The position numbers and the translations under genes are program-made. Below the pieces are notes generated by a model that saw nothing but the letters and a program-made list of their open reading frames with translations, was not told the DNA's origin and did not search any database. DNA of 38,857 nt, taken from Aurantimonadaceae bacterium (GTDB lineage Bacteria > Pseudomonadota > Alphaproteobacteria > Rhizobiales > Rhizobiaceae). Where the stretch lies: the NCBI GenBank assembly GCA_003232595.1, contig QIIJ01000298.1, positions 1 to 38,857 on the forward strand, in the 5' to 3' direction. This document shows, in pieces, positions 4,798 through 38,857 of this stretch. The stretch's first letter is position 1. Every line of letters begins with the position of its first letter.

Positions 4798-5202
4798 ATG
4801 CAAATTAATTCGATAAACGGGCAAGGCGGCATCATTTCTGGAATATCCAGCGAAGTGAGCAAACCAAACTCCCAAAGTTCAACTGATACATTAAATGGGT
4901 TTCAGGCAGTGGTTCAATCACTTGACGTGGCAAGCAGTAATCCGGCGGCAATAAAAACTGCCGTCTTGGATAACCTTCGGGCTGATGGTGCCGGGATCAA
5001 CTCCAACCTGGACAAAACTGCGGTTTCCAAGGCCTTTGAAACCATGCTTGTTGCCCAGTTTCTTAGCCCTCTGTTTGCCGGGTCCGGTGCAAGCATGTTT
5101 GGTAGCGGTGTTCAGGGAGACATCACCAAATCGTTGTTAACTGATGCTATCGCTGAGGCTATCACAGAACGCGGTGGGATTGGCCTGGGTAAATTTATCT
5201 GA
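4798..5202 (+). CDS. flgJ: flagellar rod-assembly protein FlgJ, rod-binding domain only (no muramidase domain)
   Basis: 134 aa from ATG 4798; the ORF-track start at 4618 lies inside the MATE gene. The Rod_binding-type segment is KAFETMLVAQFLSPLFAG...MFGSGVQGDITKSLLTDAIAEAITERGGIGLGKFI. The stop overlaps the next start (TGATG). Confidence 0.75.
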   Translation: MQINSINGQGGIISGISSEVSKPNSQSSTDTLNGFQAVVQSLDVASSNPAAIKTAVLDNLRADGAGINSNLDKTAVSKAFETMLVAQFLSPLFAGSGASMFGSGVQGDITKSLLTDAIAEAITERGGIGLGKFI

Positions 5203-9216: not shown

Positions 9217-9483
9217 TCAAAATCCGGTTGATATTCTTGAAAACGACAATGTGGACAGGATGTTGATTTGTGATGCCATGAATGGTGCTGCGATTGATGC
9301 CACGACAAGCACGGCCACGATTTTTGGAATGAATGTCAAGGTGAGTTCCTGGATTTGCGTCAAAGCCTGGAGCAGAGCAATAAGAGTTCCAATCAGCATC
9401 GCTGTAATGATGATCGGCGCCGAGACCTTCAGCAACGTCTGGAATGCAAACTGAATGAGTTCAAGCGCGTCTGCTTCATTCAT
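9217..9483 (-). CDS. fliQ: flagellar export apparatus protein FliQ
   Basis: 88 aa with two TM helices. MNEADALELIQFAFQTLLKVSAPIIITAMLIGTLIALLQALTQIQE is the FliQ/SctS signature. Confidence 0.92.
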   Translation of the reverse strand: MNEADALELIQFAFQTLLKVSAPIIITAMLIGTLIALLQALTQIQELTLTFIPKIVAVLVVASIAAPFMASQINILSTLSFSRISTGF

Positions 9484-13271: not shown

Positions 13272-13273
13272 CT

Positions 13274-13560
13274 AGACCCTTTCTTGCTTACACGGAAGCA
13301 TTTGGCCGAATTTCCGCGTTTGCTGGCAAGGCGTATTTTCTGCCGTGGTCTGGATGACCACAAATGAAGCACTACAAAGCCCAGAAAGCGAGGAAAACCG
13401 TCCTCCGATGACCCGGATCAGTCCATCAGCTCGCCTGCCCTCGGGCTTGTCCCGGGGGTTGCGAAATTTGAACGATGAACCACATCGCCCTGAGCTTCGC
13501 GCCTTGCTGAATGAACTGATCTGGGTCATCAAATGATTCCGTGTAAGCAAGAAAGGGTCT
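13274..13560. repeat. 287-bp MITE-like element bounded by 24-bp perfect terminal inverted repeats
   Basis: agaccctttcttgcttacacggaa (13274-13297) is the exact reverse complement of ttccgtgtaagcaagaaagggtct (13537-13560). The pairing extends inward to 31 bp with one mismatch (13274-13304 vs 13530-13560). I see no convincing CDS inside. The element fills the flgE-flgK spacer. Confidence 0.7.
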
Positions 13561-13591
13561 GGGTTTATCACCGACCTGAGTTCGAGCACTT

Positions 13592-15763: not shown

Positions 15764-17062
15764 TCACCAATAAGTCCCGCTACGGTGTTCAATATCACTT
15801 GAAACCCGCGTGGTTAAGTCAGAAATTCTTTTCGAGTTTTGGGGCTGAAAACTCGATTTTCTCTCCAACTCTGTTGCCAATTGCTGTTTTTTCGCACCGT
15901 TGAAATTGTCTAAACCGGAATTATCCGTCTGCGTGCCGATAATTCTGGCTTCTCTAGGATCAATTTGCTCAAGCCGCGGATTGTGTTTTAGGATGATTTC
16001 ATTGGTGGTCAATCCAGACGCTGTCAGTGTATTGGATATTGAGGTTAATTCGGTGCGAAGCAGAGATTCAGCACCTCGCGTCTTTGTTTCAATTACAATC
16101 TCCAGACGACCTCTGCTGCGACTTATCTTCACCTCAACAACACCAAGATTTTTTGGCACCAACTGTATTTCAATTGTCTGTACAGTGTTGGATAAACCCT
16201 GGGGCACAACAGTCAGACTGTTTGAGACAGCAGCAGGGGTGGGCGGCGAATAGATATTCTGGATGATGGCTTTGGTAATGTTCAAAGCAGCCGGTGCCAA
16301 AACGGGTTTTTGTTCCATTGTCCGAATAGCAGTGGCATTGTCCCGGTCTCTTTCGACCCGCAAATTTTGATATTGCTCTTTTGGCGCAGCTTCCTTTTGC
16401 ATCTGATCGTCCACCAGGCGACCGGATGTGAGGACGGCCTTTGTTGACTCAAATGCCAAACCCGGCACAGGATTGACTGCAGGAGACCTGCTGCTGCCAC
16501 GAGGTCGATCCGGCGCAGCAACTGCCTTGATTTGTGGTTCAATAGCTTTTTGTACCAACAGCGATCCGTCAGCCCCATCCTTTGCGGCCGGATTTTGCGA
16601 TTGAACTGCACTCCACTTGTCCCTCGGACTATTGCCAGGGGTGGTACCCGTGTGTGCGCGTCTTTCCTGCAGCACTTCAGAACCGGTAGCAGCGCCAGAA
16701 ACCGGCCGGGAAGAACCATATTTTACAGTTAACTGAATGGCCGTGGAGTATGATGGCTGGAAATTCCGGACTTGCCTGCCATTGTCTGCTTCTGTCCCGT
16801 TAATCCCGTCCTCCTGCTGCCCAACAGTGTCTCCGGATTTGGTTGAATCAATTTCCGGGTTAAGATTTTCGTTTTGGCGCGTTTCTGTATGGAATACCTT
16901 TGTCCATTTTTCCTGGAAATGCTCCGGTTCCTGCCTGGCGCGAATTAAGGAATGAAATTCGGAGATATCTGAATCATACCTGGTTTTTGAACCCGGTGTC
17001 GTGTCGGTCTGCCTGCTAATTGCATTGACAATGGTCTGAACAATGTTTCCGGTTAATTTCAT
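15764..17062 (-). CDS. fliK: flagellar hook-length control protein FliK (formerly MotD)
   Basis: 432 aa. The N-terminal two-thirds are low-complexity and Pro/Gln/Ser-rich. The C-terminus is Flg_hook-like (IEIQLVPKNLGVVEVKISRSRGRLEIVIETKTRGAESLLRTELTSISNTLTASGL). It is the last gene of the motB-motC-motD unit, with a 4-nt overlap with motC. Confidence 0.8.
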   Translation of the reverse strand: MKLTGNIVQTIVNAISRQTDTTPGSKTRYDSDISEFHSLIRARQEPEHFQEKWTKVFHTETRQNENLNPEIDSTKSGDTVGQQEDGINGTEADNGRQVRNFQPSYSTAIQLTVKYGSSRPVSGAATGSEVLQERRAHTGTTPGNSPRDKWSAVQSQNPAAKDGADGSLLVQKAIEPQIKAVAAPDRPRGSSRSPAVNPVPGLAFESTKAVLTSGRLVDDQMQKEAAPKEQYQNLRVERDRDNATAIRTMEQKPVLAPAALNITKAIIQNIYSPPTPAAVSNSLTVVPQGLSNTVQTIEIQLVPKNLGVVEVKISRSRGRLEIVIETKTRGAESLLRTELTSISNTLTASGLTTNEIILKHNPRLEQIDPREARIIGTQTDNSGLDNFNGAKKQQLATELERKSSFQPQNSKRISDLTTRVSSDIEHRSGTYW

Positions 17063-18393
17063 TTTTGTTGCTCCGGCATAATTTTTTCAAGTTCGGCAAA
17101 CAGTTCTTGTGCACGAATTGCGATCTTGTTGCTATTGAGGATGGAAGCCTCTTTTTCCGGTGTGAATGCCATTTTGGGCTCATCACCGGGGTAGGTTTGC
17201 TGGCGGCTGCGCAATATCGACTTCAATTCAGCAATATCAATTGGGTCGCTTCGCAGACGCCCGACAAGAGCATCAACTGCGTCAAAGAGTTTTTGATCAT
17301 TCTTATCAAGTATAGACCGGTTGATTTTATTGAATTCCATAAATGATGCATCAAACATATCGGGCTGCACGATGCCGGATGCTGCAAAATAGAGGCTCAT
17401 TCGTGCGTGAAGCTTGTCGTTTTGGCCCATAATATCCAGAGCGCGCCGACTGCTCCAATTGGCGGTTTTTATCCGCCCGGACACTGTCGCACTGCGCGCT
17501 GTGTAAATCAGCACCCTCAATTGTTCGTTTTTATTAAGCTCCTCAGAAAATGACTGCAAATATTTCAGCACTTCCTTTTCTCTTTCCCGGGGCATGCGCA
17601 TCAGGCCAAAAGCAAAGTTCTTCAAAAAGTCCGCAAAATACAGTGATTTTCGAAAGTTACGAAGATAGCTGGATGCGTCACCGCGAAACTTCTCAAAGTT
17701 ACTGTTGTTACCGACTATTCGAAAAGATCTCCTCAGCGCAGCTTCCTCAATCAATGTACCAGGAGCCAATCTCCGGGCTTCATTGAGATACATGCTCGCA
17801 AGTTTGAGATCGGTGGACGCGGTCACCATCGACTTTGCCAACGCAAACTGCGCTGCAGCCGATGGTTGAATCAACCGGTGATCGAGAGCCAGCATGAGTT
17901 GGCGGGCTTCTGCAAAGTTGCGTTCAGCATAGGCAATTGCGGCAATTAACGGTCGCTTCGCCAGATCATCAAGCGTGCTGACCTCGACCGCCTTTATACC
18001 AACGGCCGGATTTCCACCGATCAGAACATAAATCGCCGCTGCATTCAGGTTTTTTTGCGATGACCAGACGTCTGCTTTTTGACCCAGCATCAAGCCTGAA
18101 TACTTGACTAACAGCTTGCGATAGATATTCAGCGATCCCGGTATTCCCGCGACAATCGCATCCTGCAAATGTTGCAGCTTCCGAATTAGTTGCCAGGGCT
18201 GTATCCTTTCTCCTGCTGGAGGTTTTTCCTCTGGCCGTGGTGGTATTCTTTCACCTTGCACATTTGGCGCGCCATTGTTGTGAGGAATGCCCCCAATCTC
18301 GTTTGATGAGGCAGGCGGCGTTTGAATGACAAGGAATACTGCCGCCAACGCTATTTGGGCGACAACAGTCAGCTTGCAGCGAGCGCTTTTCAT
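17059..18393 (-). CDS. motC: periplasmic motility protein MotC
   Basis: 444 aa with a signal peptide (MKSARCKLTVVAQIALAAVFLVIQTPPASS). Its position downstream of motB, overlapping it by 4 nt, is as in Sinorhizobium, Agrobacterium and Brucella. Confidence 0.75.
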   Translation of the reverse strand: MKSARCKLTVVAQIALAAVFLVIQTPPASSNEIGGIPHNNGAPNVQGERIPPRPEEKPPAGERIQPWQLIRKLQHLQDAIVAGIPGSLNIYRKLLVKYSGLMLGQKADVWSSQKNLNAAAIYVLIGGNPAVGIKAVEVSTLDDLAKRPLIAAIAYAERNFAEARQLMLALDHRLIQPSAAAQFALAKSMVTASTDLKLASMYLNEARRLAPGTLIEEAALRRSFRIVGNNSNFEKFRGDASSYLRNFRKSLYFADFLKNFAFGLMRMPREREKEVLKYLQSFSEELNKNEQLRVLIYTARSATVSGRIKTANWSSRRALDIMGQNDKLHARMSLYFAASGIVQPDMFDASFMEFNKINRSILDKNDQKLFDAVDALVGRLRSDPIDIAELKSILRSRQQTYPGDEPKMAFTPEKEASILNSNKIAIRAQELFAELEKIMPEQQK

Positions 18394-22566: not shown

Positions 22567-23304
22567 TTAGAAATCAACAGAATTAAGCAACTGGCCGACG
22601 ATTATGTTCCATCCATCGATCAAAACAAAAAACAGAACCTTGAAAGGCAGCGAAACCACCGTTGGAGGAAGCATTAACATGCCCATGGCCATAGTTACGG
22701 TTGCAACCACCAAATCTATTACAAGGAAAGGCAGCAAAATTAAAAAACCTATTTCAAATCCGCGCCTTAGCTCTGAAATCATAAAGGCTGGGATGACGAT
22801 TCTCATGCCTGGTTCGCTCTCTTCCGTATCCCCCAGTTCATTTCGTTTGCTGAAATCTGAAAATAGCGCAATATCTTTGTCTCGAACGTGTCGCAGCATG
22901 AATTTTTTTAAAGGTGCAGAAATTTTTTCCAGGGCTTCTTCCTGTGAGATTTTATTTTCTATCAAAGGCTGAACCCCGTCATTCCATGATTTTTCGAAAA
23001 CCGGCGCCATTACAAAATAGGTCATAAATATAGACAGCGATATGACAATCAAATTGGAAGGTGTAGACTGCAGGCCCAGACCGCTGCGTAGAAAGGAAAA
23101 GGCAATAACAAACCGTGTAAAGGAGGTTGTGGTTACGAGAAGGCCCGGTGCAATTGACAAAACTGTCAACAACACCATGCCCTGGATAATTCGTCCCGAC
23201 AAAGTACCGCCACCATCTGGTATGATATCTGAAAGGTTCAGCCCCTGCGCTTGAACCACATCAGCAGTCGTCAGCGAGATTATAGCAAAAATCAAAAGCC
23301 TCAT
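22567..23304 (-). CDS. fliP: flagellar export apparatus protein FliP
   Basis: 245 aa with a signal-like N-terminus. FliP motifs are TSFTRFVIAFSFLRSGLGLQSTPSN and FMISELRRGFEIGFLILLPFLVIDLVVATVTMAMGMLMLPP. It overlaps fliL by ATGA. Confidence 0.95.
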   Translation of the reverse strand: MRLLIFAIISLTTADVVQAQGLNLSDIIPDGGGTLSGRIIQGMVLLTVLSIAPGLLVTTTSFTRFVIAFSFLRSGLGLQSTPSNLIVISLSIFMTYFVMAPVFEKSWNDGVQPLIENKISQEEALEKISAPLKKFMLRHVRDKDIALFSDFSKRNELGDTEESEPGMRIVIPAFMISELRRGFEIGFLILLPFLVIDLVVATVTMAMGMLMLPPTVVSLPFKVLFFVLIDGWNIIVGQLLNSVDF

Positions 23305-23816
23305 TCTACCACCAGTGTCGAGATCATCACATCATCGACCTTGCCATCGGTTGAAAGCCGGGCACGATCCAACAGGTCATCTTTCAGGTGCAGGAATCCG
23401 CTGGGGCCAGATATCTGGCTGAGCGTGATGTTTCTTAGAAAGGCTGCAATATCACTTGCAATTCTACCTTTCACTACCGGATCTTTCAGATCGGCATCAC
23501 CGTCTGCAACCACGGCCATTTCAATGCGAAGCCACGTGTTCTGGCTACCACTCAATCCAACGATAATTGGGCCCAATGCAACAATGGTCTTTCCAGCAGG
23601 CACATTTTCTGCTTCCTCCTTAGTATCGCCTGCTTTGGTTTCAGTGCCGGTTTTTTCCTCAATTTTCAAATCGGCATTCCTTGGCGGCAACAGTTTTGCA
23701 CCGACAAACCAACCAGCGCCAACAGCCAGAACAGATACCAGAGCCAAGGCTATGATAAATGTCATCATGGATTGTGAATCTGCCGGTTTGTCTTGTTTAA
23801 CCACAGCTGCTGCCAT
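23301..23816 (-). CDS. fliL: flagellar basal-body-associated protein FliL
   Basis: 171 aa with one TM helix (MMTFIIALALVSVLAVGAGWFVG). The FliL domain is IVALGPIIVGLSGSQNTWLRIEMAVVAD...LKDDLLDRARL...VDDVMISTLVVE. It sits upstream of fliP. Confidence 0.88.
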   Translation of the reverse strand: MAAAVVKQDKPADSQSMMTFIIALALVSVLAVGAGWFVGAKLLPPRNADLKIEEKTGTETKAGDTKEEAENVPAGKTIVALGPIIVGLSGSQNTWLRIEMAVVADGDADLKDPVVKGRIASDIAAFLRNITLSQISGPSGFLHLKDDLLDRARLSTDGKVDDVMISTLVVE

Positions 23817-23819: not shown

Positions 23820-24599
23820 CTAATACTCCCGCCTGTAGGGCATTGGCGTCGGCGATTGCGATGGCAACCACTGTGATGTACGACGTGGTCTTGTATTGTT
23901 ACCGCCATATGAAATTCTCGCCTCTGCCACCTTTTCGTAAGGAATTGTGTTGTTCGGCAGGATATCTTTTGAACGAACGATTCCTTCAACGGTCAATATC
24001 CGCAACTCGCGATTGACCCGAACTTCCTGTGATCCGGATATTTTGAGATTTCCGTTTGCAGATGCGGCAACAACGATCGCAGCAACTTGCAAGCGAATAT
24101 TTTCAGATCGATTGACGGTGCCACTCTTTTCAGCACCCAGTTTGCCATTGAGCGATGCATCAATTGAGGCATCTGGATTAAAGCCTGAGGGAAGAGTAAA
24201 GGTGCCTGAACCACCAAGCGCACCCGATATAGACCCGTCCCTTTTTGACCTGTTATCAAACTTTGCACTGTCATTCATAGTGATGCTGACAGTCAATATA
24301 TCACCAATTTCGTAAGCCCGAGTGTCGCGAAAATATATGCTGTCCCGTTTATTCCACAGCGCATTGTCGGTCATAACTGTTCTTTGTGGTGCCAAAGCTG
24401 CATTCGGTTTCCGCACCATTGCCAAACCTGGAACAGCAATTTGAGCACTGATCCTGGAAAGGGCTGGAGGCTTGCCTATATCCGTCAGGAGCAGATTGCA
24501 TCCTGTGAGGACAAGCGCCATCAAAGACAGCGCCACAATTTTACCAATGCTATTTGAAATCGAGCGAAATAGCTGTTTGGCGGGAAGAATGTGAAGCAT
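23820..24599 (-). CDS. flgH: flagellar L-ring lipoprotein FlgH
   Basis: FlgH core motifs are ALWNKRDSIYFRDTRAYEIGDILTV and ISGSQEVRVNRELRILTVEGIVRSKDI. A lipobox LVLTGC follows the signal peptide. I start it at ATG 24599 (259 aa). The TTG 24743 start would add 48 non-signal residues and overlap motE. Confidence 0.88.
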   Translation of the reverse strand: MLHILPAKQLFRSISNSIGKIVALSLMALVLTGCNLLLTDIGKPPALSRISAQIAVPGLAMVRKPNAALAPQRTVMTDNALWNKRDSIYFRDTRAYEIGDILTVSITMNDSAKFDNRSKRDGSISGALGGSGTFTLPSGFNPDASIDASLNGKLGAEKSGTVNRSENIRLQVAAIVVAASANGNLKISGSQEVRVNRELRILTVEGIVRSKDILPNNTIPYEKVAEARISYGGNNTRPRRTSQWLPSQSPTPMPYRREY

Positions 24600-24714
24600 C
24601 GCCAGCTCGCTGCAGTTCAGCGTTTGCAAAAGGGTTTGGTCCAACGGGCAATGCTGGATTTGCCAAAAGACAGGTAGTCCGATGACATTTACATTTTTGA
24701 ATTTGTGCGGGGCT

Positions 24715-25275
24715 TTATTTGGAATTAGTGTCATCTGTTTCAACAGCGCTGGTCAATACAGTTGCGATCTTTGCCGCATCTGCCGGTTTCATTTCAGTGA
24801 GAATTGAACTTGATATCTTGGGTTCAAGTTTGAAGATTATCGAAGCCGCGAGTACGGGCCCAAGCTCTGTCAGTTGCAGCGCTGCCGCATCGGCTCGCAT
24901 TGACTGGAAAATGCTGACCAGTGATTCATTACCGGTTTTCAGAAATTGTTCTCTTCTCAATGTCCAGCTTCGAAGTTCCTCTATCCGAACAGCAAGCTTT
25001 TTGAGCTTTCCTTCAACTCTGATTTCTATGGAATTCAGATTCTTGCTTAATATTGAATTTCTCGTTTCGGTTGCGGCATCGGATATATTGATGCAATAGC
25101 TGAGCATTTTATTGTCTCGCATAATTGAGCCGGTGATCAGGTCACTATCAACTCCGTCCATTTGCAGCACATCAATTTTTTCTGGTACTTTCTCACCGTG
25201 CTCTTGTGCCTGAGACACAAATCCACCAGCCGCAGCCACAAATATCAACGCGTATGTCAAAGGTGCTTTTTTCAC
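24715..25275 (-). CDS. motE: MotE-family periplasmic protein (MotC chaperone type)
   Basis: 186 aa with a signal peptide (MKKAPLTYALIFVAAAGGFVSQA). It has a single Cys (SYCINIS) in the N-terminal third, a coiled coil, and a C-terminal MgtE_N-like segment (IFQSMRADAAALQLTELGPVLAASIIFKLEPKISSSILTEMKPADAAKIATVL). It lies between flgI and flgH, where I recall this gene class sitting in other Rhizobiales. Confidence 0.65.
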   Translation of the reverse strand: MKKAPLTYALIFVAAAGGFVSQAQEHGEKVPEKIDVLQMDGVDSDLITGSIMRDNKMLSYCINISDAATETRNSILSKNLNSIEIRVEGKLKKLAVRIEELRSWTLRREQFLKTGNESLVSIFQSMRADAAALQLTELGPVLAASIIFKLEPKISSSILTEMKPADAAKIATVLTSAVETDDTNSK

Positions 25276-28968: not shown

Positions 28969-29385
28969 CTATGCAAAACGACGTACTTGACTGATGGCCT
29001 CTGCCAGACGCCAGGTGTTCATCTTCGGGTCATCTGAAGTTTCCTCGAAGGAAATGTGGTGTAGCTCCACATTGGTATCGCCACTGCCGAGCTTAAGACG
29101 AAAGAAGGCGAATATCCCTGCGTGATTAAACTCCAGATCAAGATAGATTGTAGCTGGCCCTGACCAGGATATGGAACTGTCGCCAGTGCAGGAAAAATTC
29201 ATGGTATTATTTAGAAAGTGATTATCCAGGGTTGCCATGACCTGATCGTAAACGCCCAATAATTGCCCCAAATGAAGGAAATTATCGTAACAGGTAGGTT
29301 CAATGAGTTTGAGATCTTCAGCCAATTTGCGACACGCATCGCGCAACAGTCTTTCCCGCTCGGAGATTGCCATATCAGCAATCAT
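28969..29385 (-). CDS. hypothetical cytoplasmic protein translationally coupled to flhB
   Basis: 138 aa with no TM helix or signal peptide. The ATG overlaps the flhB stop (ATGA). I recognise no family. The position is equivalent to the uncharacterised ORF after flhB in Agrobacterium and Sinorhizobium clusters, from memory. Confidence 0.55.
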   Translation of the reverse strand: MIADMAISERERLLRDACRKLAEDLKLIEPTCYDNFLHLGQLLGVYDQVMATLDNHFLNNTMNFSCTGDSSISWSGPATIYLDLEFNHAGIFAFFRLKLGSGDTNVELHHISFEETSDDPKMNTWRLAEAISQVRRFA

Positions 29386-30458
29386 TTCCGGGTCGCAATC
29401 TCAGATTCTGACAATGCTCTGATTATCCTGGCAATTGGCAAATAGAAATCGATCGGAATTTCCATATCCACCTGCACCGCCTTGTACAGTGCACGCGCCA
29501 ATGGCGGATCTTCAGTTATCGATATCTCGTTGTTTTCTGCAACCTCACGAATTTTCAGGGCAATTCGATCTTGTCCCTTTGCCAGGACAAAAGGCACCTT
29601 ATCGATTTTGGGATCGTAACGCATCGCCACTGCAAAATGAGTTGGATTGGCAACAACCAGGGTTGCACCTGCAACATCGGAGATCATGCGACGGCGTGCC
29701 CTGTCCTGGGCAACGGATCGGGTTCGCAGCTTTATCATCGGATCCCCTTCCGTTTGTTTTCGCTCATCTTTCACCTCCTGGTGGGACATTTTCAGATTAT
29801 TGAACCATTCTCTTCTCACCAGAATAAAATCTGCAGCACCCAGCAAAAACATCAGCATTGTCAGGCCTGTTAAAATCTGTAGAAACAAATCGTTAATCAC
29901 CACCGGAATTTCGGCCGTATCGACCATGATCATGGAGATAACAAACTCAGTTTGTGACATGATTATAATTGTGGCGATAAAACCGGCGGCTGAAAATTTA
30001 AACACCGTTTTGCCAAATTCACGGAGCCCTTGTGGTCCCAGGAGGCGTTTTAAACCTTTCCCAATGGAAACCTTCTCAAGCTTTGGCTTAATTCTGTTCC
30101 CTACCAGTCTCGGGGTGTTCTGCGCCAACGCGGAAACAAACCCAAACAACATCAATGGCAGGATCACCGGTGCCAGATTGACAAGAATTCTCGCGCCCAG
30201 AAGATTGGAAAGATTTCCGGCGTCCACCGGGCTGTCCAGAGGCCAATTGTCCACGTTTGCGAAAATACCCTTCAACACACTGCTCAATTCTACGGTTATT
30301 GTTGGTACATAAAGATATCCAACAATGACCAGTGCGGCCAACGAAGAAGCGTTGGTGACTTCACGCGAAAAAGGTACGTTGCCTTTTTCCAGGGCATCGC
30401 CAATCTTTTTTTCGGTAGGCAGTTCAGTTTTGCTGTCCTTTTCAGTTTCTTCCTGCAT
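29382..30458 (-). CDS. flhB: flagellar export switch protein FlhB
   Basis: 358 aa with 4 TM helices and a cytoplasmic domain carrying the autocleavage motif NPTH (TLVVANPTHFAVAMRY). Confidence 0.95.
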   Translation of the reverse strand: MQEETEKDSKTELPTEKKIGDALEKGNVPFSREVTNASSLAALVIVGYLYVPTITVELSSVLKGIFANVDNWPLDSPVDAGNLSNLLGARILVNLAPVILPLMLFGFVSALAQNTPRLVGNRIKPKLEKVSIGKGLKRLLGPQGLREFGKTVFKFSAAGFIATIIIMSQTEFVISMIMVDTAEIPVVINDLFLQILTGLTMLMFLLGAADFILVRREWFNNLKMSHQEVKDERKQTEGDPMIKLRTRSVAQDRARRRMISDVAGATLVVANPTHFAVAMRYDPKIDKVPFVLAKGQDRIALKIREVAENNEISITEDPPLARALYKAVQVDMEIPIDFYLPIARIIRALSESEIATRK

Positions 30459-30469: not shown

Positions 30470-31423
30470 CTAGTCAACTTCCGGCAAATTTATCTTGCCA
30501 TCCTTGGCAAGCTTAAGGGCGCGAACAGCAATGGCTTTTTGTGCTTTTTCAGCCTCATCTTCCGGCGTTGCCATGCGCGTCAAGTCTGATTCCACCATCC
30601 TGCGGTTTCTGGGGCTCAGCACTTCCAGAACCGCTTCCCGATTGGATTCACCAGTAGTTGAAAGCGCCTTTACAATCTCGTCAGCCTGAACACCATCAAA
30701 CAGAGCATTTCTGTCTTCCTTGCTGAGTAATTCAACCGTCGAAAACTTGAACAACGATTTTTTAATAGCCGTGGCAAGGTCAGGGCTGTTTCCTTGCAGA
30801 AATCCGATAATTTGATCAGAGGCTTCTGAAGAAAATTGATTGATCAGACTTGCTGCCTTGGCTACCTCGCGCACATTTCCATCATCGGGCTTGGTATCTT
30901 CCATGAGTTCAATCAGATCGGTTTCGAACATGTTTTGCAGAGTGGGCTCAATTCTGTTGCCGGTCAGGTAGGCTTGAAAAATTTCGTTTCGGAGGATCGG
31001 ATCCAGATCGGCAAACACGCTTACGATCAGTTCATCGCCAAGGCGATCCAGCAGCAAGGCACCGATTTGAGGCGCTTCCGATTCGAGAAATATCCTGACC
31101 ACCTCTGAATCAAGGTTCGGTTCATTGCTGCTCAGAGGTTCGGATTTGCTTTTGAGGCTTGGCTCAGCATCGTCTTCAAACAGCATGGACAGGTCTTCAG
31201 AACCCGCCATTATTCCATAAATCTGATAGTTGTCGCCAAACTCCTCAATCAAACTGTCGGCGTTGCTGCTGCTTAATCCCGACATGCGGCGGGCGGCCTC
31301 AACCACCATGTTTAATTCACCTTTGGAAAAAAATTCAGCCAGCCGGACCGCTGAGTCCTTTCCCATGATCAAAAACAGTGCTGCGGCCTTTTCAGTTCCG
31401 GTAAGTTCAGAAATTCCTTTCAT
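30470..31423 (-). CDS. fliG: flagellar rotor/switch protein FliG
   Basis: 317 aa. The N-terminus is LTGTEKAAALFLIMGKDSAVRLAEFFSKGEL. The C-terminal torque-helix region is LEVLSPRNRRMVESDL. It is a divergent Rhizobiales-type FliG. Confidence 0.88.
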   Translation of the reverse strand: MKGISELTGTEKAAALFLIMGKDSAVRLAEFFSKGELNMVVEAARRMSGLSSSNADSLIEEFGDNYQIYGIMAGSEDLSMLFEDDAEPSLKSKSEPLSSNEPNLDSEVVRIFLESEAPQIGALLLDRLGDELIVSVFADLDPILRNEIFQAYLTGNRIEPTLQNMFETDLIELMEDTKPDDGNVREVAKAASLINQFSSEASDQIIGFLQGNSPDLATAIKKSLFKFSTVELLSKEDRNALFDGVQADEIVKALSTTGESNREAVLEVLSPRNRRMVESDLTRMATPEDEAEKAQKAIAVRALKLAKDGKINLPEVD

Positions 31424-31476: not shown

Positions 31477-32025
31477 TTATGTGATTTCGGTGAGCGTTAT
31501 TCCAAACCTTGGCACGCCCTCTTCTATTACAACGATTTCACCACGGGCGATCAATTGGCCATTTGCAACAATATCAATTGCCTCTCCTATATTTGAGTCC
31601 AGGGAAATGAGCTCTCCCTGTTTAAGTTCGGCCAGTTGTGAAACCGGCATGTGGATGCCGCCGAGAATGGCCTGCACATGCACTTTGATGTTTGCAATAG
31701 TCTGCATTGCCATAATATCAGTTTTTAGCGGACCTCTTATTCGGGCACCTTTGCTCGCGGGTGATCGCGCATCCGGAACTGGTCTGTCGGCATTGTCCGT
31801 TGAGTTTACTGGCCGGGCCAAATTCACAGAATTATCGTTTTGTTCCGTAACATCAAGCTCGGCACCGTCAACCGAAGCATTCTTGTTGTTTTCTGCGTTC
31901 GGTTCGGCGCTGTCACTTCCAGGCGCAATTTCTTCTTTTGTTGTTGAAGGTTTCAGTTTGGGTATTTCTGTCTGGTCATCCAGCCCAAGGTGATCGCTCA
32001 GGGTCGGTGTAGCCGTTTCAGCCAT
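31477..32025 (-). CDS. fliN: flagellar switch protein FliN (long N-terminal extension)
   Basis: 182 aa. The C-terminal SpoA domain is IKVHVQAILGGIHMPVSQLAELKQGELISLDSNIGEAIDIVANGQLIARGEIVVIEE, preceded by about 100 low-complexity residues. The SD is GGAGGG. Confidence 0.9.
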   Translation of the reverse strand: MAETATPTLSDHLGLDDQTEIPKLKPSTTKEEIAPGSDSAEPNAENNKNASVDGAELDVTEQNDNSVNLARPVNSTDNADRPVPDARSPASKGARIRGPLKTDIMAMQTIANIKVHVQAILGGIHMPVSQLAELKQGELISLDSNIGEAIDIVANGQLIARGEIVVIEEGVPRFGITLTEIT

Positions 32026-32656
32026 TGGATACCCTCCGCGCGGTTGACCCCAAGTTGTCGATATCGCCAGGGTCTGCCTGCCTGAATATAGTGGATAACT
32101 TGGCTATTTTGTCGTCTTCATTCCGGTTTTTGACGGATAGGGTTCTTTTCTCCACCAGAAGCTGGTTGAGAAGGGTCACACTGTTTTTGACTGAAGAGTT
32201 GCGGTTTGCAGTTTCCTCGAGCCTTGACGGAATTCCCTGTTGAATTTTTGTGTGCGGCTTTATTTGTCTGCTGCCGCCAAGTGCCGGATTTCTGGAAGAG
32301 GGACTGCTTTCCAGAAATGTAGACTTGTTACCGGAGTGAGCCAATTGCTTGCTGTCAGACAAAATTGCATCAAGGTTCCGCAATTGCCGGTTGAGAGAAT
32401 TGATCAGCACATTTTGGTAATCAAAAGCCTTGCTTTGATAAGAAATTATTTTTTGGCTGTCTGATTTAATGCTGTTGAGCCTGCCACCGTAGCTTTTAAG
32501 GGTCTTGAGATTGTGACTCATTACCTTCAATGCCAGCAGAATTCTATTGTCTATAGTCTTCAGCAATCTAATAACAAAATAGGTAAATACTCCAACCACT
32601 ATGGTGACCAGTCCAACGAGCACTACTGCTGCCAGCAAAAATGAAAGTTGACCCAT
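32018..32656 (-). CDS. uncharacterised single-pass membrane protein inserted between fliM and fliN
   Basis: 212 aa from ATG 32656. A perfect SD (AAAGGAG) lies 6 nt upstream, and the ATG lies 1 nt after the fliM TGA. Its stop overlaps the fliN ATG (ATGGCTGA). It has an N-terminal TM helix (LSFLLAAVVLVGLVTIVVGVFTYFVI), then a short helical segment, then a Ser/Asn/Lys/Arg-rich tail. Confidence 0.7.
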   Translation of the reverse strand: MGQLSFLLAAVVLVGLVTIVVGVFTYFVIRLLKTIDNRILLALKVMSHNLKTLKSYGGRLNSIKSDSQKIISYQSKAFDYQNVLINSLNRQLRNLDAILSDSKQLAHSGNKSTFLESSPSSRNPALGGSRQIKPHTKIQQGIPSRLEETANRNSSVKNSVTLLNQLLVEKRTLSVKNRNEDDKIAKLSTIFRQADPGDIDNLGSTARRVSNG

Positions 32657-32657: not shown

Positions 32658-33605
32658 TCAAACTCCTTTAGATTTCGAGGCCCGGGCAATCCGAAGCTGT
32701 GTGCTGTTTTTCCCTAATTCAATATCTGACAGGAATGTGCAATTCTCGTCGCCATCAATTATCATGACATTTGTCAGGTCAAACCGTACGTCAAGCATGT
32801 CTCCAGGAGCAAAACCCGCCACATCAACAAGAGACATTTCCATCGAGACAATCTGGGCTCTGAGTGGAATTGACAATTCGTCAATTCTTCCCTGTAATTT
32901 CGCTTTCCATACCCGCTCCTCGCGTTGCTTTATGCTCGCCACATCACTTTCAGACGCCGCCAGATTGCCTGGCTCCAGCACTTCTAGGGGCGTTAGAATT
33001 TTGATTTGTTGTATCGCGCCGTCAATGGAAATCTCGAATGTGATTGATACAAGTTCTGTTTTATCCGATTCCGCCATCAAGTGTTTTGTATCTATGCCCG
33101 CAACTTCAAGTCCGGCACTATTGGCATGATTAAAGTTCAATGCATTGAGCAGGGCGGCCCCGGTTTGATGAACGAATCGTAAAAACAGCTTGCACTCGGC
33201 AGCGGACAAATCTGTTTGGCGTTGTTCCGATTGCTGCCAGCTGTAACCACCCAGCAAGACACCAAGAATGCTGCGAAAAACCGTGCTTTCGATGCTGATA
33301 AAACTCACCAGTTGTTCATTGTGGTCATTAATTCTGGCAAGGACAGGACCTTCTTCCTCATTTGCCGTATCCTCAATGCCGGGAAATAGGACGACCTCAA
33401 TCAGTTCCAATTCGATTTCCTTGCCAACAAACCCGCCAATCTGCCGAATTAATTCCTCTTCCATATTTTTAAGGATATCATCAAGGCTGCCATAGCGTTC
33501 TATCGAGAGGCCTTTCTTCTCGCGCAATGTATCCAGCAGATTGGTGTTTATTGGGGAACCTTCAACCGCAATGTTCACGTCTACTGGTTTTTCGCTCTCA
33601 CTCAT
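32658..33605 (-). CDS. fliM: flagellar switch protein FliM
   Basis: 315 aa with a FliM middle domain and a C-terminal SpoA-like domain (LSIPLRAQIVSMEMSLVDVAGFAPGDMLDV). Its start overlaps the motA stop (TAATG). Confidence 0.88.
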   Translation of the reverse strand: MSESEKPVDVNIAVEGSPINTNLLDTLREKKGLSIERYGSLDDILKNMEEELIRQIGGFVGKEIELELIEVVLFPGIEDTANEEEGPVLARINDHNEQLVSFISIESTVFRSILGVLLGGYSWQQSEQRQTDLSAAECKLFLRFVHQTGAALLNALNFNHANSAGLEVAGIDTKHLMAESDKTELVSITFEISIDGAIQQIKILTPLEVLEPGNLAASESDVASIKQREERVWKAKLQGRIDELSIPLRAQIVSMEMSLVDVAGFAPGDMLDVRFDLTNVMIIDGDENCTFLSDIELGKNSTQLRIARASKSKGV

Positions 33606-34477
33606 TATTCGGCCGCAATCGCAGCTGGTGTATTCATTGTCTGCTCTTCGACGGCTTCAATTGTCGGGCGGTCCTTTGCCGATATTGTTTTACGACCGTG
33701 CTCTACGGCAATGTGGGGACTGGCACCGTTCATGAATGCGATGAGTGACTGCTTGATAATGACATATCTTCGGTTTTGCTTTTCCCGCACAGTCTTGATT
33801 TTTGTCGCAATGGGACCAGCCATGCCGTAGGACATGAAAATACCGGCAAACGTGCCGACCAGTGCCGCCCCGATCAGACCTCCCAGAATTTCCGGGGACT
33901 GATCCAGGGCACCCATCGCCTTGATAACCCCCAGAACCGCCGCGACAATGCCTAACGCCGGAAGGCCATCAGCCATCGCCTGCACGGCCTGATAAGGCTT
34001 TAGCCGGTCGCGCGAGATTGTGTGGATCTCTTCTTCCATCAATGCTTCAATCTCGTGCGGGCGGGCATTGCCGATCAGGATCAGGCGGACATAATCGGTA
34101 ATAAAGCTAAGCATGCTCTCATCACTCAGGATTTTCGGGTAATTTTGAAAAATCACTGATTCTTCCGGCGCATCAATATGCCCCTCGATTTCAGCTGTGG
34201 TTTTCGCTCTGATTTCGTTCATCAGGTTAAACAACAGACCAATTATATCGAGGTAATCCTGCTCCTTTGGTCCTGAATCTTTAACCGCTTCCATGGTCGC
34301 TGTACCCGTATCCTTGATCGTTGGCATCGGGTTTGCAACGATGAAAATACCGACCGCGGAACCGCCGATAATCACATATTCCCACGGCTGCACCAGCACC
34401 ATAACGTTGCCGCCCATGGCCATAAAGCCACCCAGCAGGCATCCAAAGGTAATTATGAAACCAATTATAACGGTCAA
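33605..34477 (-). CDS. motA: flagellar stator protein MotA
   Basis: 290 aa with 4 TM helices. The N-terminus is MTVIIGFIITFGCLLGGFMAMGGNVMVLVQPWEYVIIGG. The C-terminal channel region is GLPALGIVAAVLGVIKAMG...LGGLIGAALVGTFAGIFMSYG. Confidence 0.95.
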   Translation of the reverse strand: MTVIIGFIITFGCLLGGFMAMGGNVMVLVQPWEYVIIGGSAVGIFIVANPMPTIKDTGTATMEAVKDSGPKEQDYLDIIGLLFNLMNEIRAKTTAEIEGHIDAPEESVIFQNYPKILSDESMLSFITDYVRLILIGNARPHEIEALMEEEIHTISRDRLKPYQAVQAMADGLPALGIVAAVLGVIKAMGALDQSPEILGGLIGAALVGTFAGIFMSYGMAGPIATKIKTVREKQNRRYVIIKQSLIAFMNGASPHIAVEHGRKTISAKDRPTIEAVEEQTMNTPAAIAAE

Positions 34478-35392: not shown

Positions 35393-36115
35393 ATGGACGC
35401 TTCACTTTATGTCGCAACTGCCGGTCAGAGGGTCTTGAAAAAACAGCTGGCCATTGTTGCCAACAATATTGCAAACAGCAACACGGTTGGCTTTCGTGCG
35501 GAGAGCGTAGAATTTCGCAGCCTTGTGTCCAGTAAAGCAAGCCAGTCGACCAGTTTTCCTGCAATCGGTGGGCTTCAGCCCTCTCTTGATCAAGGGGCGG
35601 TTACGGAAACCGGCAATCCATTGGATATTGCCTTGTCGGGCAAAGGATGGTTTGGCATATCAACCCCTAATGGGGTCGCCTATACGAGAGATGGACGAAT
35701 GCAGATAAGTCCCTTTGGTGAACTGCAATCTCTTGAAGGTTTTTCGGTGCTGGATGCAAGCGAGGCACCGATATTGCTCAACACAAGTGCCGGTCCGCCA
35801 GAAATTCAAAAAGACGGACGGATTGTCATGAACGGCAGAATTGTCGGTAATATTGGTGTTTTCGACATCGACAAGCAAAACCTCATGAGCAGGTACACAA
35901 ACTCAGCGTTTCTTGCGACAACTCCAGGTGTTCCGATTCCAATTGGTGACCAAACTATTATCAGCCAGGGCTATCTTGAATCTTCCAATGTAAATCCGAT
36001 GAAGGAACTGACCAGATTAATTGCCATCACAAGAAACTTTGAGAGTGTTTCAGCGGTAATTGATCGCGCCGATAAAACTATTTCGAAGTCTGTTAATGAA
36101 CTGGCTGGCAATTGA
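35393..36115 (+). CDS. flgF: proximal rod protein FlgF
   Basis: 240 aa. The N-terminus is MDASLYVATAGQRVLKKQLAIVANNIANSNTVGFR. The C-terminus is LESSNVNPMKELTRLIAITRNFESVSAVIDRADK. Confidence 0.92.
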   Translation: MDASLYVATAGQRVLKKQLAIVANNIANSNTVGFRAESVEFRSLVSSKASQSTSFPAIGGLQPSLDQGAVTETGNPLDIALSGKGWFGISTPNGVAYTRDGRMQISPFGELQSLEGFSVLDASEAPILLNTSAGPPEIQKDGRIVMNGRIVGNIGVFDIDKQNLMSRYTNSAFLATTPGVPIPIGDQTIISQGYLESSNVNPMKELTRLIAITRNFESVSAVIDRADKTISKSVNELAGN

Positions 36116-36235
36116 GGTTTATTGCAGACTAACGCTTGTGGTTTCACATACTCATATGAGTGAACGCCGATCAAATGAGGATTGGCCTCTCAACGGGCAT
36201 CTGCCAGTTTCATATCAGGGTGTCTGTCGTAAATT

Positions 36236-36937
36236 TTATGATAGTGGTAAAACGCGTTGCCGTGAGCCTGTGTTGGGCGACTTGTCAGTCCGCGGTTTGA
36301 GATTGATCATTAAATGGTGAAACTTCTCTCCCTGCACGGCCACATGATCACGAAGAGCAGCAGCAGCCTGATCGGGTTTGCTATCATTTAAAGCTTGAAC
36401 GATTGCCCTATGCTCAGCCAATGATTGTTTCATTCGCCCGCGAAGATGGAGTTGAATGCGACGAAACGGTTTTAGTCGCCTGTGCACCCGCAAGGCTTCC
36501 TGCTCCAAAAACCCATTTCCCGACTGTTTGTAAATCAGATGATGGAACTGCTCGTTTTTACGGTAATACTCATCAACATCGTCTTTTTCTACGGCATCCT
36601 GGCATTTTGCATTGGCTTTGCGCAATAAATCGAGCGCCGCCTCAGAAATTCGCTTTGCCGCCAAACGCCCGCATACAGCCTCTATCTCGGCCATGTATTC
36701 AAACATCTCCAGCAATTCCACCGGGCCCGGCTGGCGGACAAAAATCCCGCGCCTGGGAAGCTGTTCGACAAGCCCAGATACCGTAAGCATCTGGAAGGCC
36801 TCACGAACGGGGGTTCGCGAAACACCAAACTGTTCCGCCAGTTTGACTTCATCCAATCGTAAACCATCTGCATATTCACCCGTCAGGATGAATTGTTCCA
36901 GTTCCCTTGCAATAATTTCAGCGCGTCGAATATCCAT
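36236..36937 (-). CDS. GntR/FadR-family transcriptional regulator
   Basis: 233 aa from ATG 36937. The N-terminal winged HTH is LDEVKLAEQFGVSRTPVREAFQMLTVSGLVEQLPRRGIFV, followed by an all-helical FCD-type C-terminal domain. It is divergent from the TRAP operon. Confidence 0.85.
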   Translation of the reverse strand: MDIRRAEIIARELEQFILTGEYADGLRLDEVKLAEQFGVSRTPVREAFQMLTVSGLVEQLPRRGIFVRQPGPVELLEMFEYMAEIEAVCGRLAAKRISEAALDLLRKANAKCQDAVEKDDVDEYYRKNEQFHHLIYKQSGNGFLEQEALRVHRRLKPFRRIQLHLRGRMKQSLAEHRAIVQALNDSKPDQAAAALRDHVAVQGEKFHHLMINLKPRTDKSPNTGSRQRVLPLS

Positions 36938-36982
36938 AACAAACCATAACTTACGGCAACCTTTGGTGCAAGATAGATAGTA

Positions 36983-36992
36983 TTGTATACAA
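36983..36992. promoter_or_regulatory. candidate GntR/FadR operator (perfect palindrome TTGTATACAA)
   Basis: TTGTATACAA fits the FadR-subfamily core t.GT.n.AC.a. It lies in the 139-bp divergent spacer between the regulator and dctP, 5 nt upstream of a -35-like TTGACA (36998-37003, plus strand). Confidence 0.5.
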
Positions 36993-37076
36993 AAAGATTG
37001 ACATAGCATGCAAACTGACGATGATAAGCGTTGTTCCCCCTAGTTGCTTGGGGATATGTCAAAACGGGAGGAAATC

Positions 37077-38066
37077 ATGAAAAATAAACTATTGGCTATT
37101 GCTGCTGCTGGCGCGCTCTTTGCGGCAAGCACTGGCGCATTCGCCCAGGAAGTGCTTCGTTTGTCTCACCAGTGGTCAAACAAGGATATTCGCCACAAGG
37201 TAGCCCAGATTGTTGCAGATGAAGTCGCTGCTGCCGGCGTTGATCTGGAAATCAAGATCTTCGGTTCAAAGTCGCTATTCAAACCACGTGAGCAATACAA
37301 GCCGCTCAGCCGAGGATTGCTGGATATGACGGTCTTTCCGCTTTCTTATGCTGGCGGCCAGCAGCCAGCCTATAACTTAACTCTGATGCCGGGCCTGGTA
37401 AAAAACCACGAACATGCTGCGCGCCTTTCCAATTCTCCTTTTATGAAATCACTTGAGGAGATCATGGAAAAAGATGATGTGATGGTTTTGGTTCACGGTT
37501 ATCTTGCCGGGGGGTTTGCAGGCAAAGACAAATGTATCACCAAACCGGATGATGTCGCCGGACTGCAAACGCGGGCAGCTGGAAAGGCCTTTGAACAAAT
37601 GCTGGCTGGTGCCGGCGCATCCATCGCCTCAATGGCCTCATCTGAGATTTATAGCGCAATGCAGACCGGAGTGCTGAATGCCGCAAACACATCGTCATCG
37701 TCGTTTGTGTCATATCGCATCTATGAGCAGGTATCCTGCTATACACCTGCAGGAGATGTGGCGTTGTGGTTCATGTACCAGCCTCTATTAATGAACAAAT
37801 CAAAATTTGATGGTCTCAAACCGGATCAGCAGGCAGCCTTGCTTGCAGCATCAAAAAAGGCCGAAGCCTTTTATCTTGAAGAAGCCAAAAAGCAGGATGC
37901 CAAATCCGCTGAAGTGTTTCGCAAGGCTGGTGTAGAGATTGCCGAAATGACCCCTGAAGATTTTGCCGCCTGGCGCGCATTGGCGCAAAATACATCTTAT
38001 AAAACTTTCGTCGAAAGCGTTCCAAACGGTCAGGCACTGCTTGACATGGCTCTCGCTGTAGAGTGA
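37077..38066 (+). CDS. dctP: TRAP transporter substrate-binding protein (DctP family)
   Basis: 329 aa from ATG 37077 with SD GGGAGG. The signal peptide is MKNKLLAIAAAGALFAASTGAFAQE. It is followed by small and large TRAP membrane subunits. The ligand cannot be determined from sequence. Confidence 0.8.
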   Translation: MKNKLLAIAAAGALFAASTGAFAQEVLRLSHQWSNKDIRHKVAQIVADEVAAAGVDLEIKIFGSKSLFKPREQYKPLSRGLLDMTVFPLSYAGGQQPAYNLTLMPGLVKNHEHAARLSNSPFMKSLEEIMEKDDVMVLVHGYLAGGFAGKDKCITKPDDVAGLQTRAAGKAFEQMLAGAGASIASMASSEIYSAMQTGVLNAANTSSSSFVSYRIYEQVSCYTPAGDVALWFMYQPLLMNKSKFDGLKPDQQAALLAASKKAEAFYLEEAKKQDAKSAEVFRKAGVEIAEMTPEDFAAWRALAQNTSYKTFVESVPNGQALLDMALAVE

Positions 38067-38139
38067 ACGCAGTCAGGGTGGCAGTTGCAAATATTGCAGT
38101 TGCCGCCCGGGATTTTACAGGCGATAGAAAGGGCGACCA

Positions 38140-38688
38140 GTGGCGGGGCACAGTTCTGCAATAACAGCGCGCACGGGCAAAAACCCGTTTCTTAAATTCG
38201 TTGCAGCAACATCAACTCTTGCCGGCTGGGCTTCCGCCGCAATGATTTTTTTAGCTGTAGTAATAACGTGTCAGATGATTTTCGTGCGCTTTGTTTTGAA
38301 CCAGTCCACAATCTGGCAGACCGAAGCGGTGGTCTATCTGGCAGTTGCGGCAACATTAATTGGCCTGTCCTATGTGCAACGTGTGAGGGGACATGTAAAT
38401 GTCGACCTGATCCCGCTGGCACTGGGTAGACGAACGCGATTTTTTCTTGCCATTCTTACCCTGACACTGTCCTCAACCATTGTTGCCGTTATGCTTTGGT
38501 ATGGGTTTGAATATTGGTATCTGGCCTGGGACAAGGGATGGCGGTCAGATACAATTTGGGGTGTGAGGTTGTGGATTCCATATTTGGCGCTGCCTGTGGG
38601 ATTTGCCTTGTTTCTCCTTCAACTGATTGCAGACCTTGTTGCTGTAATTCTGAAAATTGACAAGCCTTTTGGGTTGGAGGACACCTGA
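38140..38688 (+). CDS. dctQ: TRAP transporter small permease (DctQ family)
   Basis: 182 aa with a GTG start and 4 TM helices. The stop overlaps the next ATG (TGATG). Confidence 0.75.
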   Translation: MAGHSSAITARTGKNPFLKFVAATSTLAGWASAAMIFLAVVITCQMIFVRFVLNQSTIWQTEAVVYLAVAATLIGLSYVQRVRGHVNVDLIPLALGRRTRFFLAILTLTLSSTIVAVMLWYGFEYWYLAWDKGWRSDTIWGVRLWIPYLALPVGFALFLLQLIADLVAVILKIDKPFGLEDT

Positions 38689-38857
38689 TGGACCCTCTGT
38701 TGCTCAGCGGCGTTGTTGCATTTTTCACAATTCTTGTCCTTTTTTCCGGTGTGTCCGTAGCGCTCGGTCTGCTGATTGTGTCTGCAGGCTTCCTGATTAT
38801 CTTTGATGGCATGCGGTCGCTGGAGCTAATACCGGAAATCCTGTTTGGCAAGCTGGA
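38688..38857 (+). CDS. dctM: TRAP transporter large permease (DctM family), 3' end outside the window
   Basis: The open frame from ATG 38688 runs to the window end: MDPLLLSGVVAFFTILVLFSGVSVALGLLIVSAGFLIIFDGMRSLELIPEILFGKL. It is hydrophobic and DctM-like at the N-terminus. It is absent from the ORF track because there is no stop. Confidence 0.7.
   Translation, partial: MDPLLLSGVVAFFTILVLFSGVSVALGLLIVSAGFLIIFDGMRSLELIPEILFGKL

Follow-up and report, generated by a model that had tools for sequence, protein, structure and literature searches.

Here we report that the gap between fliM and fliN in a flagellar cluster of an Aurantimonadaceae bacterium is filled by a genuine protein gene under purifying selection, which we call gene X (its product, X). 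The cluster is of the Rhizobiales ('lateral') type and lies on contig QIIJ01000298.1, positions 1 to 38,857; this whole stretch of 38,857 nucleotides (nt) is referred to below as the window. X is very probably a real flagellar accessory protein, and its sequence suggests a genuine, uncharacterised and unnamed family of accessory flagellar proteins among the small bitopic accessories of the motor and export apparatus. More tentatively, we favour a role for X in tethering the switch complex or the export apparatus to the membrane, or in stabilising its assembly. The case is built on the tight and dual-coded junctions of gene X, its fixed place among the flagellar genes of its relatives, a near-invariant motif at the end of a predicted membrane-anchored stalk, and its pace of evolution relative to FliM and MotA.

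Gene X and its junctions

Gene X belongs to an operon in the order motA-fliM-X-fliN-fliG-flhB, whose features are as follows.

33605..34477, minus strand: motA, the first gene of the operon (TIGR03818, E=2e-108)
32658..33605, minus strand: fliM, directly upstream of gene X (TIGR01397, E=4e-14; Pfam FliM, E=0.019)
32663..32669, minus strand: Shine-Dalgarno sequence AAAGGAG of gene X, within the final fliM codons, as read from the sequence
32018..32656, minus strand: gene X, 639 nt including the stop codon, 212 amino acids (aa), filling the fliM-fliN gap; an unnamed, predicted bitopic membrane protein
32018..32038, minus strand: dual-coded 3' end of gene X, whose codons R-R-V-S-N-G-stop hold the ribosome-binding site (RBS) of fliN (CGGAGG) and the fliN ATG (AATGGCTGA)
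31477..32025, minus strand: fliN, directly downstream of gene X (FliMN_C, E=7e-16; TIGR02480, E=5e-21)
30470-31423, minus strand: fliG, a distal gene of the operon, with Pfam and NCBIfam matches
29382-30458, minus strand: flhB, a distal gene of the operon, with Pfam and NCBIfam matches; its counterpart in related loci carries Bac_export_2

A previous sequence-only reading of this stretch had proposed a membrane-anchored protein embedded in the switch-complex operon, encoded by a 212-aa open reading frame (ORF) that exactly fills the fliM-fliN gap, with its Shine-Dalgarno sequence in the last fliM codons and its ATG 1 nt past the fliM stop; the operon order and the sequence agree with each of these points. 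The fliM stop TGA (32660-32658) is followed by a single A and then by the ATG of gene X (32656-32654), and the AGGAG of the Shine-Dalgarno sequence is retained in the close relatives L001, L003 and L005. Throughout the relatives the 5' junction is tight, lying between a 15-nt gap and a 20-nt overlap with fliM. At its other end gene X reads ATGGCTGA, with the fliN ATG at 32025-32023 and the gene X TGA at 32020-32018, and the two genes thus overlap by 8 nt; the overlap proposed earlier stands, with the amendment that the stop lies just beyond the fliN ATG and not on it. A scan of the operon for internal promoters and terminators returned counts, terminator-like sites included, inside the range of shuffled controls. 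From the gene arrangement, gene X appears to be co-transcribed with fliM and fliN and its translation coupled to theirs: gene X starts in coupling with the stop of fliM, and both the RBS and the ATG of fliN fall within its final codons, so that X would be made together with the switch proteins. The earlier view of a real gene, translationally coupled at both ends, is thereby upheld by the junctions and, as described below, by synteny, by the ratio of nonsynonymous to synonymous substitution rates (dN/dS) and by the intact copies in relatives.

We compared the 3' junction in 12 sequences. After its tail helices the protein ends in R-[RKS]-x-S-N-G, in which the arginine at position -6 is encoded by CGG in 9 of the 12 (7 independent lineages), whereas CGG accounts for only 16% of the remaining arginine codons of these genes. 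This codon and the one after it form CGGA(G/A), a Shine-Dalgarno core placed 8-9 nt upstream of the fliN ATG. Likewise, the terminal 'N-G-stop' reads AATGG(C/T)T(G/A)A in 10 of the 12, fliN ATG included; L005 reads CATGGTTAA ('H-G-stop'), which preserves both the ATG and the 8-nt overlap. That overlap is found in 11 of the 12 junctions, and the remaining one, of 11 nt and behind AAAGG, belongs to L027, the sole member that does not have the C-terminal motif. The pattern suggests that the R-x-x-S-N-G motif is, at least largely, a by-product of translational coupling through dual coding; its codons are largely the fliN RBS and ATG in another frame, and for this reason conservation of the motif should not by itself be taken to mark a functional peptide. 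The C-terminus of X would then offer a clean case of an RBS and start codon mimicking a conserved peptide motif, and a caution for motif-based annotation.

Gene X had also been described as AT-richer than its neighbours. This is so, but the difference is slight and limited to the 5' half of the gene: its guanine-plus-cytosine (GC) content is 0.448, compared with 0.465-0.511 for the neighbours. Its GC content at third codon positions (GC3) is 0.507, inside the neighbours' range of 0.448-0.577, whereas that at first positions is low (0.46); the lower overall GC is owed to an amino-acid composition rich in K, N, S and I. As a sign of foreign origin the low GC therefore does not hold, and we rejected horizontal acquisition of the gene on this ground, given that its GC3 matches that of its neighbours.

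Relatives, architecture and selection

A word-index search of 5.8 billion proteins recovered three close relatives of X, each exactly 212 aa long and 50-53% identical to it, on contigs whose flgF / DUF1217 / motA-fliM-X-fliN-fliG order and junctions are identical to those of the window. An exhaustive HMMER search of 1.84 billion cluster representatives with a four-sequence profile gave 25 proteins at E<=1e-3, all of them unnamed proteins from metagenomes or metagenome-assembled genomes (MAGs), in clusters of 1-4 members. Pattern scans yielded 2 loci in GTDB genomes and 2 in JGI metagenomes; further word-index searches with a 23-sequence profile and with a trimmed core profile returned almost no new homologues. 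Two X loci lie in GTDB genomes that bear no label beyond 'Hyphomicrobiales bacterium', and one metagenome match is marine. At identities down to ~20%, the homologue lies between fliM and fliN in all 13 of the distinct contexts that we read, and X is intact in every relative read, in the same length class and with the same junctions. Where degraded, non-conserved sequence at the junctions of relatives had been named as a finding that would speak against the gene, X proved intact and selected in all of the relatives read. One candidate was set aside: a 517-aa 'FliM-X fusion' (P0011; L011, 8001-9554) is a frameshift artefact, found on a 2x-coverage long-read contig in which motA and flgF are split too, and its residues ~250-330 resemble out-of-frame sequence. 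MotA of the X-bearing loci is 73-94% identical to that of the window, compared with 59-67% for MotA of Phyllobacterium, Shinella and Sinorhizobium, so the carriers look like a single clade of uncultured Hyphomicrobiales.

The anatomy of X was read from an alignment of 23 members and from an AlphaFold2 model built on that alignment, with model confidence given as the predicted local distance difference test score (pLDDT).

32570..32644, minus strand: transmembrane (TM) helix (about aa 5-29), predicted N-out/C-in; mean Kyte-Doolittle 2.99; AlphaFold2 helix with pLDDT >90
32336..32569, minus strand: predicted cytoplasmic stalk helix (aa 30-107), with a heptad repeat; predicted coiled coil of about 10-11 nm
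32342..32431, minus strand: core motif (aa 76-105), at the membrane-distal end of the stalk
32180..32335, minus strand: disordered linker rich in Ser, Asn, Lys and Pro (aa 108-159), with pLDDT <50; neutral and variable
32078..32179, minus strand: two short amphipathic helices, from conservation in the alignment and weak AlphaFold2 helices at 163-192

A hydrophobic 19-mer is present in all 20 full-length members. Its N-terminal flank holds no K or R in 19 of the 20 (0-1 overall), and the 15 residues of its C-terminal flank carry a charge of +2 to +6; by the positive-inside rule, this bias places the body of X in the cytoplasm. X is therefore predicted to be a bitopic inner-membrane protein, N-out/C-in, with a periplasmic N-terminus of 3-10 residues. 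In the AlphaFold2 model the TM helix continues straight into the stalk as a single unbroken helix over residues 2-107 (block pLDDT 88-97), and in the ~75 cytoplasmic residues the strongest hydrophobic periodicity is 3.5 residues, with a clear a/d register; the stalk is probably a parallel coiled coil that projects about 10 nm from the membrane. The single N-terminal TM helix of the sequence-only reading is thus recovered, with the Kyte-Doolittle mean listed above, and its 'short helical stretch' gives way to one continuous helix; its disordered Ser/Asn/Lys-rich tail applies to residues 108-159 but not beyond them, where the two weakly predicted helices lie.

The core motif reads K-[AS]-F-[DE]-[HY]-Q-[RN]-V-L-x-x-S-L-N-R-Q-L-x-x-L-[DE]. 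Residues 76-96 are invariant in four proteins that are only about 50% identical overall, and across the 23 members Q91 never varies and K76, L84 and S87 hardly do. With F78, I85, L88, L92, L95 and L99 at core positions of the coiled coil, the conserved K76, D79, H/Y80, R82, S87, N89, R90 and Q91 point outward, and we infer from these outward polar residues the signature expected of a partner-binding surface. Beyond the linker, whose length differs widely across the family, the first tail helix carries G-V-x-L-L-x-x-L-[FL] (about aa 158-170) and the second K-I-x-K-L-S-x-I-F (about aa 183-193). The window protein and P0002-P0030 have in common both a TM helix with a motif-bearing long helix and a place in the fliM-fliN slot that overlaps the fliN start, and together make up the fliM-X-fliN family.

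Selection acts very unevenly along gene X. By the pairwise Nei-Gojobori method, dN/dS of X is 0.12-0.31. At codons 76-106 the proportion of nonsynonymous differences (pN) is 0.00-0.06 and that of synonymous differences (pS) 0.39-0.85, such that the core is near-invariant while synonymous sites are saturated, and for the core motif the values stand at about 0.03 and about 0.8; the tail-helix region has pN of 0.10-0.30 against pS of 0.48-0.86, and at codons 107-156 pN and pS are about equal, at roughly 0.5, as in neutral evolution. As a whole, X evolves about as fast as FliM and in step with it, with FliM/X identities to the window of 57/51% in L001, 34/26% in L006 and 29/27% in L007, while MotA holds at 74-94%.

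The FliM of this clade (window 32658-33605; L001, L006-L010) is itself unusually divergent. It falls under the Pfam gathering scores (FliM, E=0.019; FliMN_C, E=0.054), its identity is 24-57% among loci whose MotA is 73-94% identical, and by tblastn it is unmatched to FliM of Phyllobacterium, Sinorhizobium and Shinella.

Known families and the fliM-fliN slot

The novelty of X with respect to characterised families, as proposed earlier, finds support in the profile searches. Beyond scattered chance matches (Med11, TrbJ, DUF948), neither the window protein (E<=1) nor any of the 23 members (E<=0.1) is matched by a model of Pfam or NCBIfam, the FliO models of both databases included, and a sequence-profile search of PDB gave nothing under E=0.36; a Foldseek search of the AlphaFold2 model against PDB was uninformative, the model being a single helix. 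The DUF6468 family, put forward as a possibility in the sequence-only reading, is unmatched by the window protein (E<=1), by any of the 23 members (E<=0.1) and by the Phyllobacterium analogue described below (E<=1), which speaks against membership, and our literature search returned no paper naming that family. Furthermore, X does not match the FliL profile (PF03748), and its predicted orientation is opposite to that of FliL; nor do the FliH, FliJ and ATP-synt_B profiles match X in Pfam scans. At the level of sequence profiles, recognisable membership of FliO, FliL, FliH, FliJ, ATP-synt_B or DUF6468 is excluded for X.

The place that gene X occupies has a wider distribution than its sequence. 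In Sinorhizobium meliloti and Shinella, fliM adjoins fliN with 55-63 nt between them, FliN is 191-198 aa long and there is no X. The adjacency of fliM and fliN stated in the sequence-only reading is thus read directly in S. meliloti, and also in Shinella; for Agrobacterium it is gene numbering that backs it, in that atu0561 is fliM (PMC8225110), the ORF after flhB in a related locus falls in the Pfam family named Atu0565, and the numbering leaves room only for fliN, fliG and flhB.

Among the plasmids of PLSDB neither X nor FliM found a match by tblastn, and MotA was then taken as the search handle. Five Phyllobacterium replicons encode a 152-160-aa 'hypothetical protein' (e.g., WP_262292158.1) between fliM and a fliN of 117 aa, compared with FliN of 182-198 aa in the window and Rhizobiaceae. 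Like X, this protein starts with a TM helix whose C flank is positive, continues with a long conserved helix and a variable linker (here of Pro/Ala) and closes with a conserved C-terminal motif, and it sits in the slot between fliM and fliN, packed on fliM (20-nt overlap). Unlike X, it is shorter, ends in a different C-terminal motif (LPVFVNRIVRSADVASAVL), does not overlap fliN and has a short partner FliN. The replicons themselves (L014, L018-L021) are 0.2-1.6 Mb in size, are classed as plasmids and carry complete Rhizobiales-type motA-fliM-X'-fliN-fliG-flhB operons.

The same slot is occupied in Bradyrhizobium. The lateral cluster of B. diazoefficiens USDA 110 comprises flhB (bll6877), fliG (bll6878), fliN (bll6879), bll6880, fliM (bll6881) and motA (bll6882), and bll6880 is among 35 coding sequences that the lateral clusters of 66 Bradyrhizobium genomes share (PMC6406911). 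In arrays, the 'hypothetical protein' bll6880 goes up and down together with the flagellar genes (PMC5017801). Its likeness to X is one of slot, known by position; it is apparently not among the matches of the four-sequence profile, given that those are all unnamed metagenome or MAG proteins. In the literature on the gene between fliM and fliN we found no study that goes beyond listing it as hypothetical, and no functional study of bll6880.

The Phyllobacterium gene and bll6880 are probably diverged counterparts of X. The fliM-fliN slot is filled in several families of Hyphomicrobiales and empty in Rhizobiaceae, the X family being one of its occupants. The earlier description of gene X as lineage-specific therefore stands for the sequence family, known only from uncultured Hyphomicrobiales, but not for the slot, which is occupied in Phyllobacterium and Bradyrhizobium as well. 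A bolder proposal treats X, the Phyllobacterium protein and bll6880 as orthologues that diverged fast from a single ancestral component of the Rhizobiales-type motor, hitherto unrecognised and lost in Rhizobiaceae: a membrane-anchored coiled-coil strut tying FliM/FliN of the C-ring, or the export apparatus, to the inner membrane. We regard this as possible but rather doubtful.

Elsewhere, Azospirillum loci have a different synteny (motA-motB) and are uninformative on the slot. In Methylobacterium bullatum NZ_LR743510.1 (L016, 5876-7405), the fliM frame enters unrelated transposase-like sequence after ~260 residues; this is probably an insertion that disrupts the switch operon of that replicon.

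Candidate roles and wider context

Under the tether reading that we tentatively favour, X would sit in the membrane beside the membrane-supramembrane (MS) ring, and the conserved stalk tip, at a depth of 7-10 nm below the membrane, would bind FliM and/or FliN, or the adjacent export apparatus, with the help of the flexible tail helices. X would thereby tether the C-ring and export gate or stabilise their assembly, and would do so as an accessory, not a core element, given that Rhizobiaceae, which lack X, assemble flagella of this type. In favour of such a tether we count the conserved surface, the FliM-like rate of X against the constancy of MotA, the fixed position of the gene, the counterparts in other genera and the precedent of SwrB. 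In B. subtilis, SwrB spans the membrane once, is encoded together with flagellar genes and is accessory, not essential; genetics links it to polymerisation of the C-ring and FliG and to FliP-dependent activation of export, giving a secretion-competent basal body (PMC4526659). We take it as the closest mechanistic precedent for X, by analogy: the two differ in phylum and gene position, and the likeness is only that of a protein that works alike. FliL/MotF resemble X in having a single N-terminal TM helix, in their place in flagellar operons and in being accessory motor parts; their bodies are periplasmic, whereas that of X is predicted to be cytoplasmic.

Several points weigh against the tether. 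The topology and coiled coil of X are predictions; Rhizobiaceae without X (S. meliloti, Shinella) imply that its role is dispensable or replaced there; and the operon position would equally fit other partners, such as MotA, FliG or FlhB. Furthermore, the counterparts are proposed on position and architecture, and bll6880 on its slot, and hhalign gives the X family and the Phyllobacterium protein a probability of only 2-4%. This last is a weak negative, because tblastn cannot pair even the FliM proteins of these lineages, and X evolves at about the FliM rate.

The other partners lead to other roles, each of which we consider less probable. It is unlikely, though not far-fetched, that X is a stator or torque accessory beside MotA/MotB, its stalk touching the cytoplasmic domain of MotA or FliG as a brake, a clutch-like element or a stabiliser. 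The operon opens with motA and includes fliG, a membrane-proximal helix could reach the MotA-FliG interface, and S. meliloti motors of this type control speed, not direction. However, the conserved motif at the far stalk end, some 7-10 nm away from the membrane, would lie below the expected MotA-FliG interface, gene X is coupled to fliM and fliN rather than motA, and the conservation of MotA (73-94%) while X evolves fast gives no sign of a tight co-evolving pair. Decidedly unlikely is the FliO-like scaffold suggested in the sequence-only reading, in which X would chaperone the FliP/FliQ/FliR core of the export gate in place of a missing FliO. FliO is a small bitopic flagellar protein encoded next to fliN in the enterobacterial fliLMNOPQR operon, and the topology predicted in the 20 full-length members, which puts a short N-terminus in the periplasm and the C-terminal part in the cytoplasm, equals that of FliO. 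The observation that no fliO is recognised and that fliL directly precedes fliP also proved correct: no FliO is found among the window ORFs of 100 aa or more, the cut-off of our first ORF survey, and fliL (23301-23816) overlaps fliP (22567-23304); SwrB again provides a precedent, here for a single-pass protein acting through FliP. Yet the FliO models go unmatched at the thresholds given above, the cytoplasmic part of X is a long helix followed by disorder with no compact domain, and in all contexts X lies between fliM and fliN, upstream and not downstream of fliN, and never directly upstream of fliP, where a FliO would be placed; moreover, Rhizobiaceae are flagellated with neither X nor an annotated FliO in these loci.

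Quite improbable, in our estimate, is a membrane-anchored stalk for the export ATPase, in which X would hold FliI/FliJ under the export gate as an analogue of FliH or of the F-ATPase b subunit. Its TM helix does run into a long helix much as in the b subunit of ATP synthase, FliH is likewise unrecognised in the window, and the S. meliloti annotation places fliI after flgF and shows no fliH; but fliI lies outside both the operon and the window, the ATP-synt_B, FliH and FliJ profiles are unmatched, and X does not have the C-terminal globular domain of FliH. A periplasmic body, with X as an N-in/C-out signal anchor acting like FliL/MotF around the stator or rod, is very improbable: the topology is a prediction and the single N-terminal hydrophobic segment recalls FliL, but the positive-inside rule points the opposite way in 20 of 20 full-length members, the FliL profile does not match and the window has a separate fliL at 23301-23816. 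Finally, we give next to no weight to a spurious or decaying ORF in an intergenic spacer. Gene X has no database name or domain, includes low-complexity stretches and is slightly lower in GC, but every relative read keeps it whole and with the same junctions, its dN/dS is well below 1, and the invariance of the core motif at saturated synonymous divergence refutes this reading.

Outside the operon, the window is otherwise a typical Rhizobiales-type cluster with several features of separate interest. Past flgF (35393-36115), positions 36116-38857 hold a GntR/FCD regulator (36236-37009, minus strand) and the TRAP genes DctP (37044-38066) and DctQ (38140-38688); S. meliloti (L015) has fliI after flgF, and the window is without fliI. 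At the other edge of the flagellar cluster, 46-2802 (plus strand) encodes a protein of 918 aa that combines Sel1 repeats with a peptidoglycan-binding domain at its C-terminus. Beside a rod-binding (FlgJ-like) gene lie two overlapping ORFs without Pfam matches (5202-5651 and 5645-6112, plus strand), the second of which (155 aa, N-terminal TM helix, FliL-like by eye) may be a second, unrecognised FliL-type protein. An 88-aa ORF between flhA and flgD (9217-9483, minus strand) is fliQ-like in look and position; it falls below the 100-aa cut-off of the first ORF survey. A 105-codon ORF with a GTG start in the flgK-flgE spacer (13272-13589, minus strand), rich in Arg, Ser and Cys and without a Pfam match, is unlikely to be a gene; the flgK-flgE spacer of L024 measures only about 20 nt. 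A secreted-looking protein of 444 aa without a Pfam match, encoded between motB and fliK (17059-18393, minus strand), is a putative MotC by position only, and a 186-aa protein with a weak MgtE_N match between flgI and flgH (24715-25275, minus strand) is a putative MotE by position only. FlgH itself (23820-24743, minus strand) is 307 aa long with its FlgH domain from residue 126, indicating either an N-terminal extension of ~120 residues or an over-long TTG start.

The switch complex is generally regarded as made up of FliG, FliM and FliN only. If X is part of the rotor or export platform, it would be an added, lineage-restricted component, in the spirit of SwrB, FliL and the accessory rings seen by cryo-electron tomography. 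X is also less singular than the sequence-only reading supposed, its slot being already recorded with 'hypothetical' genes in Bradyrhizobium and Phyllobacterium. As these genera are culturable and tractable, and Bradyrhizobium carries its like-positioned gene with the lateral flagella, the idea is testable; furthermore, the absence of X from Rhizobiaceae and its presence in the carriers provide a built-in natural comparison. Were the occupants of the slot indeed to descend from one ancestral strut, the carriers should display, in cryo-electron tomography, an additional cytoplasmic density next to the C-ring, one that the motors of Sinorhizobium and Agrobacterium lack.

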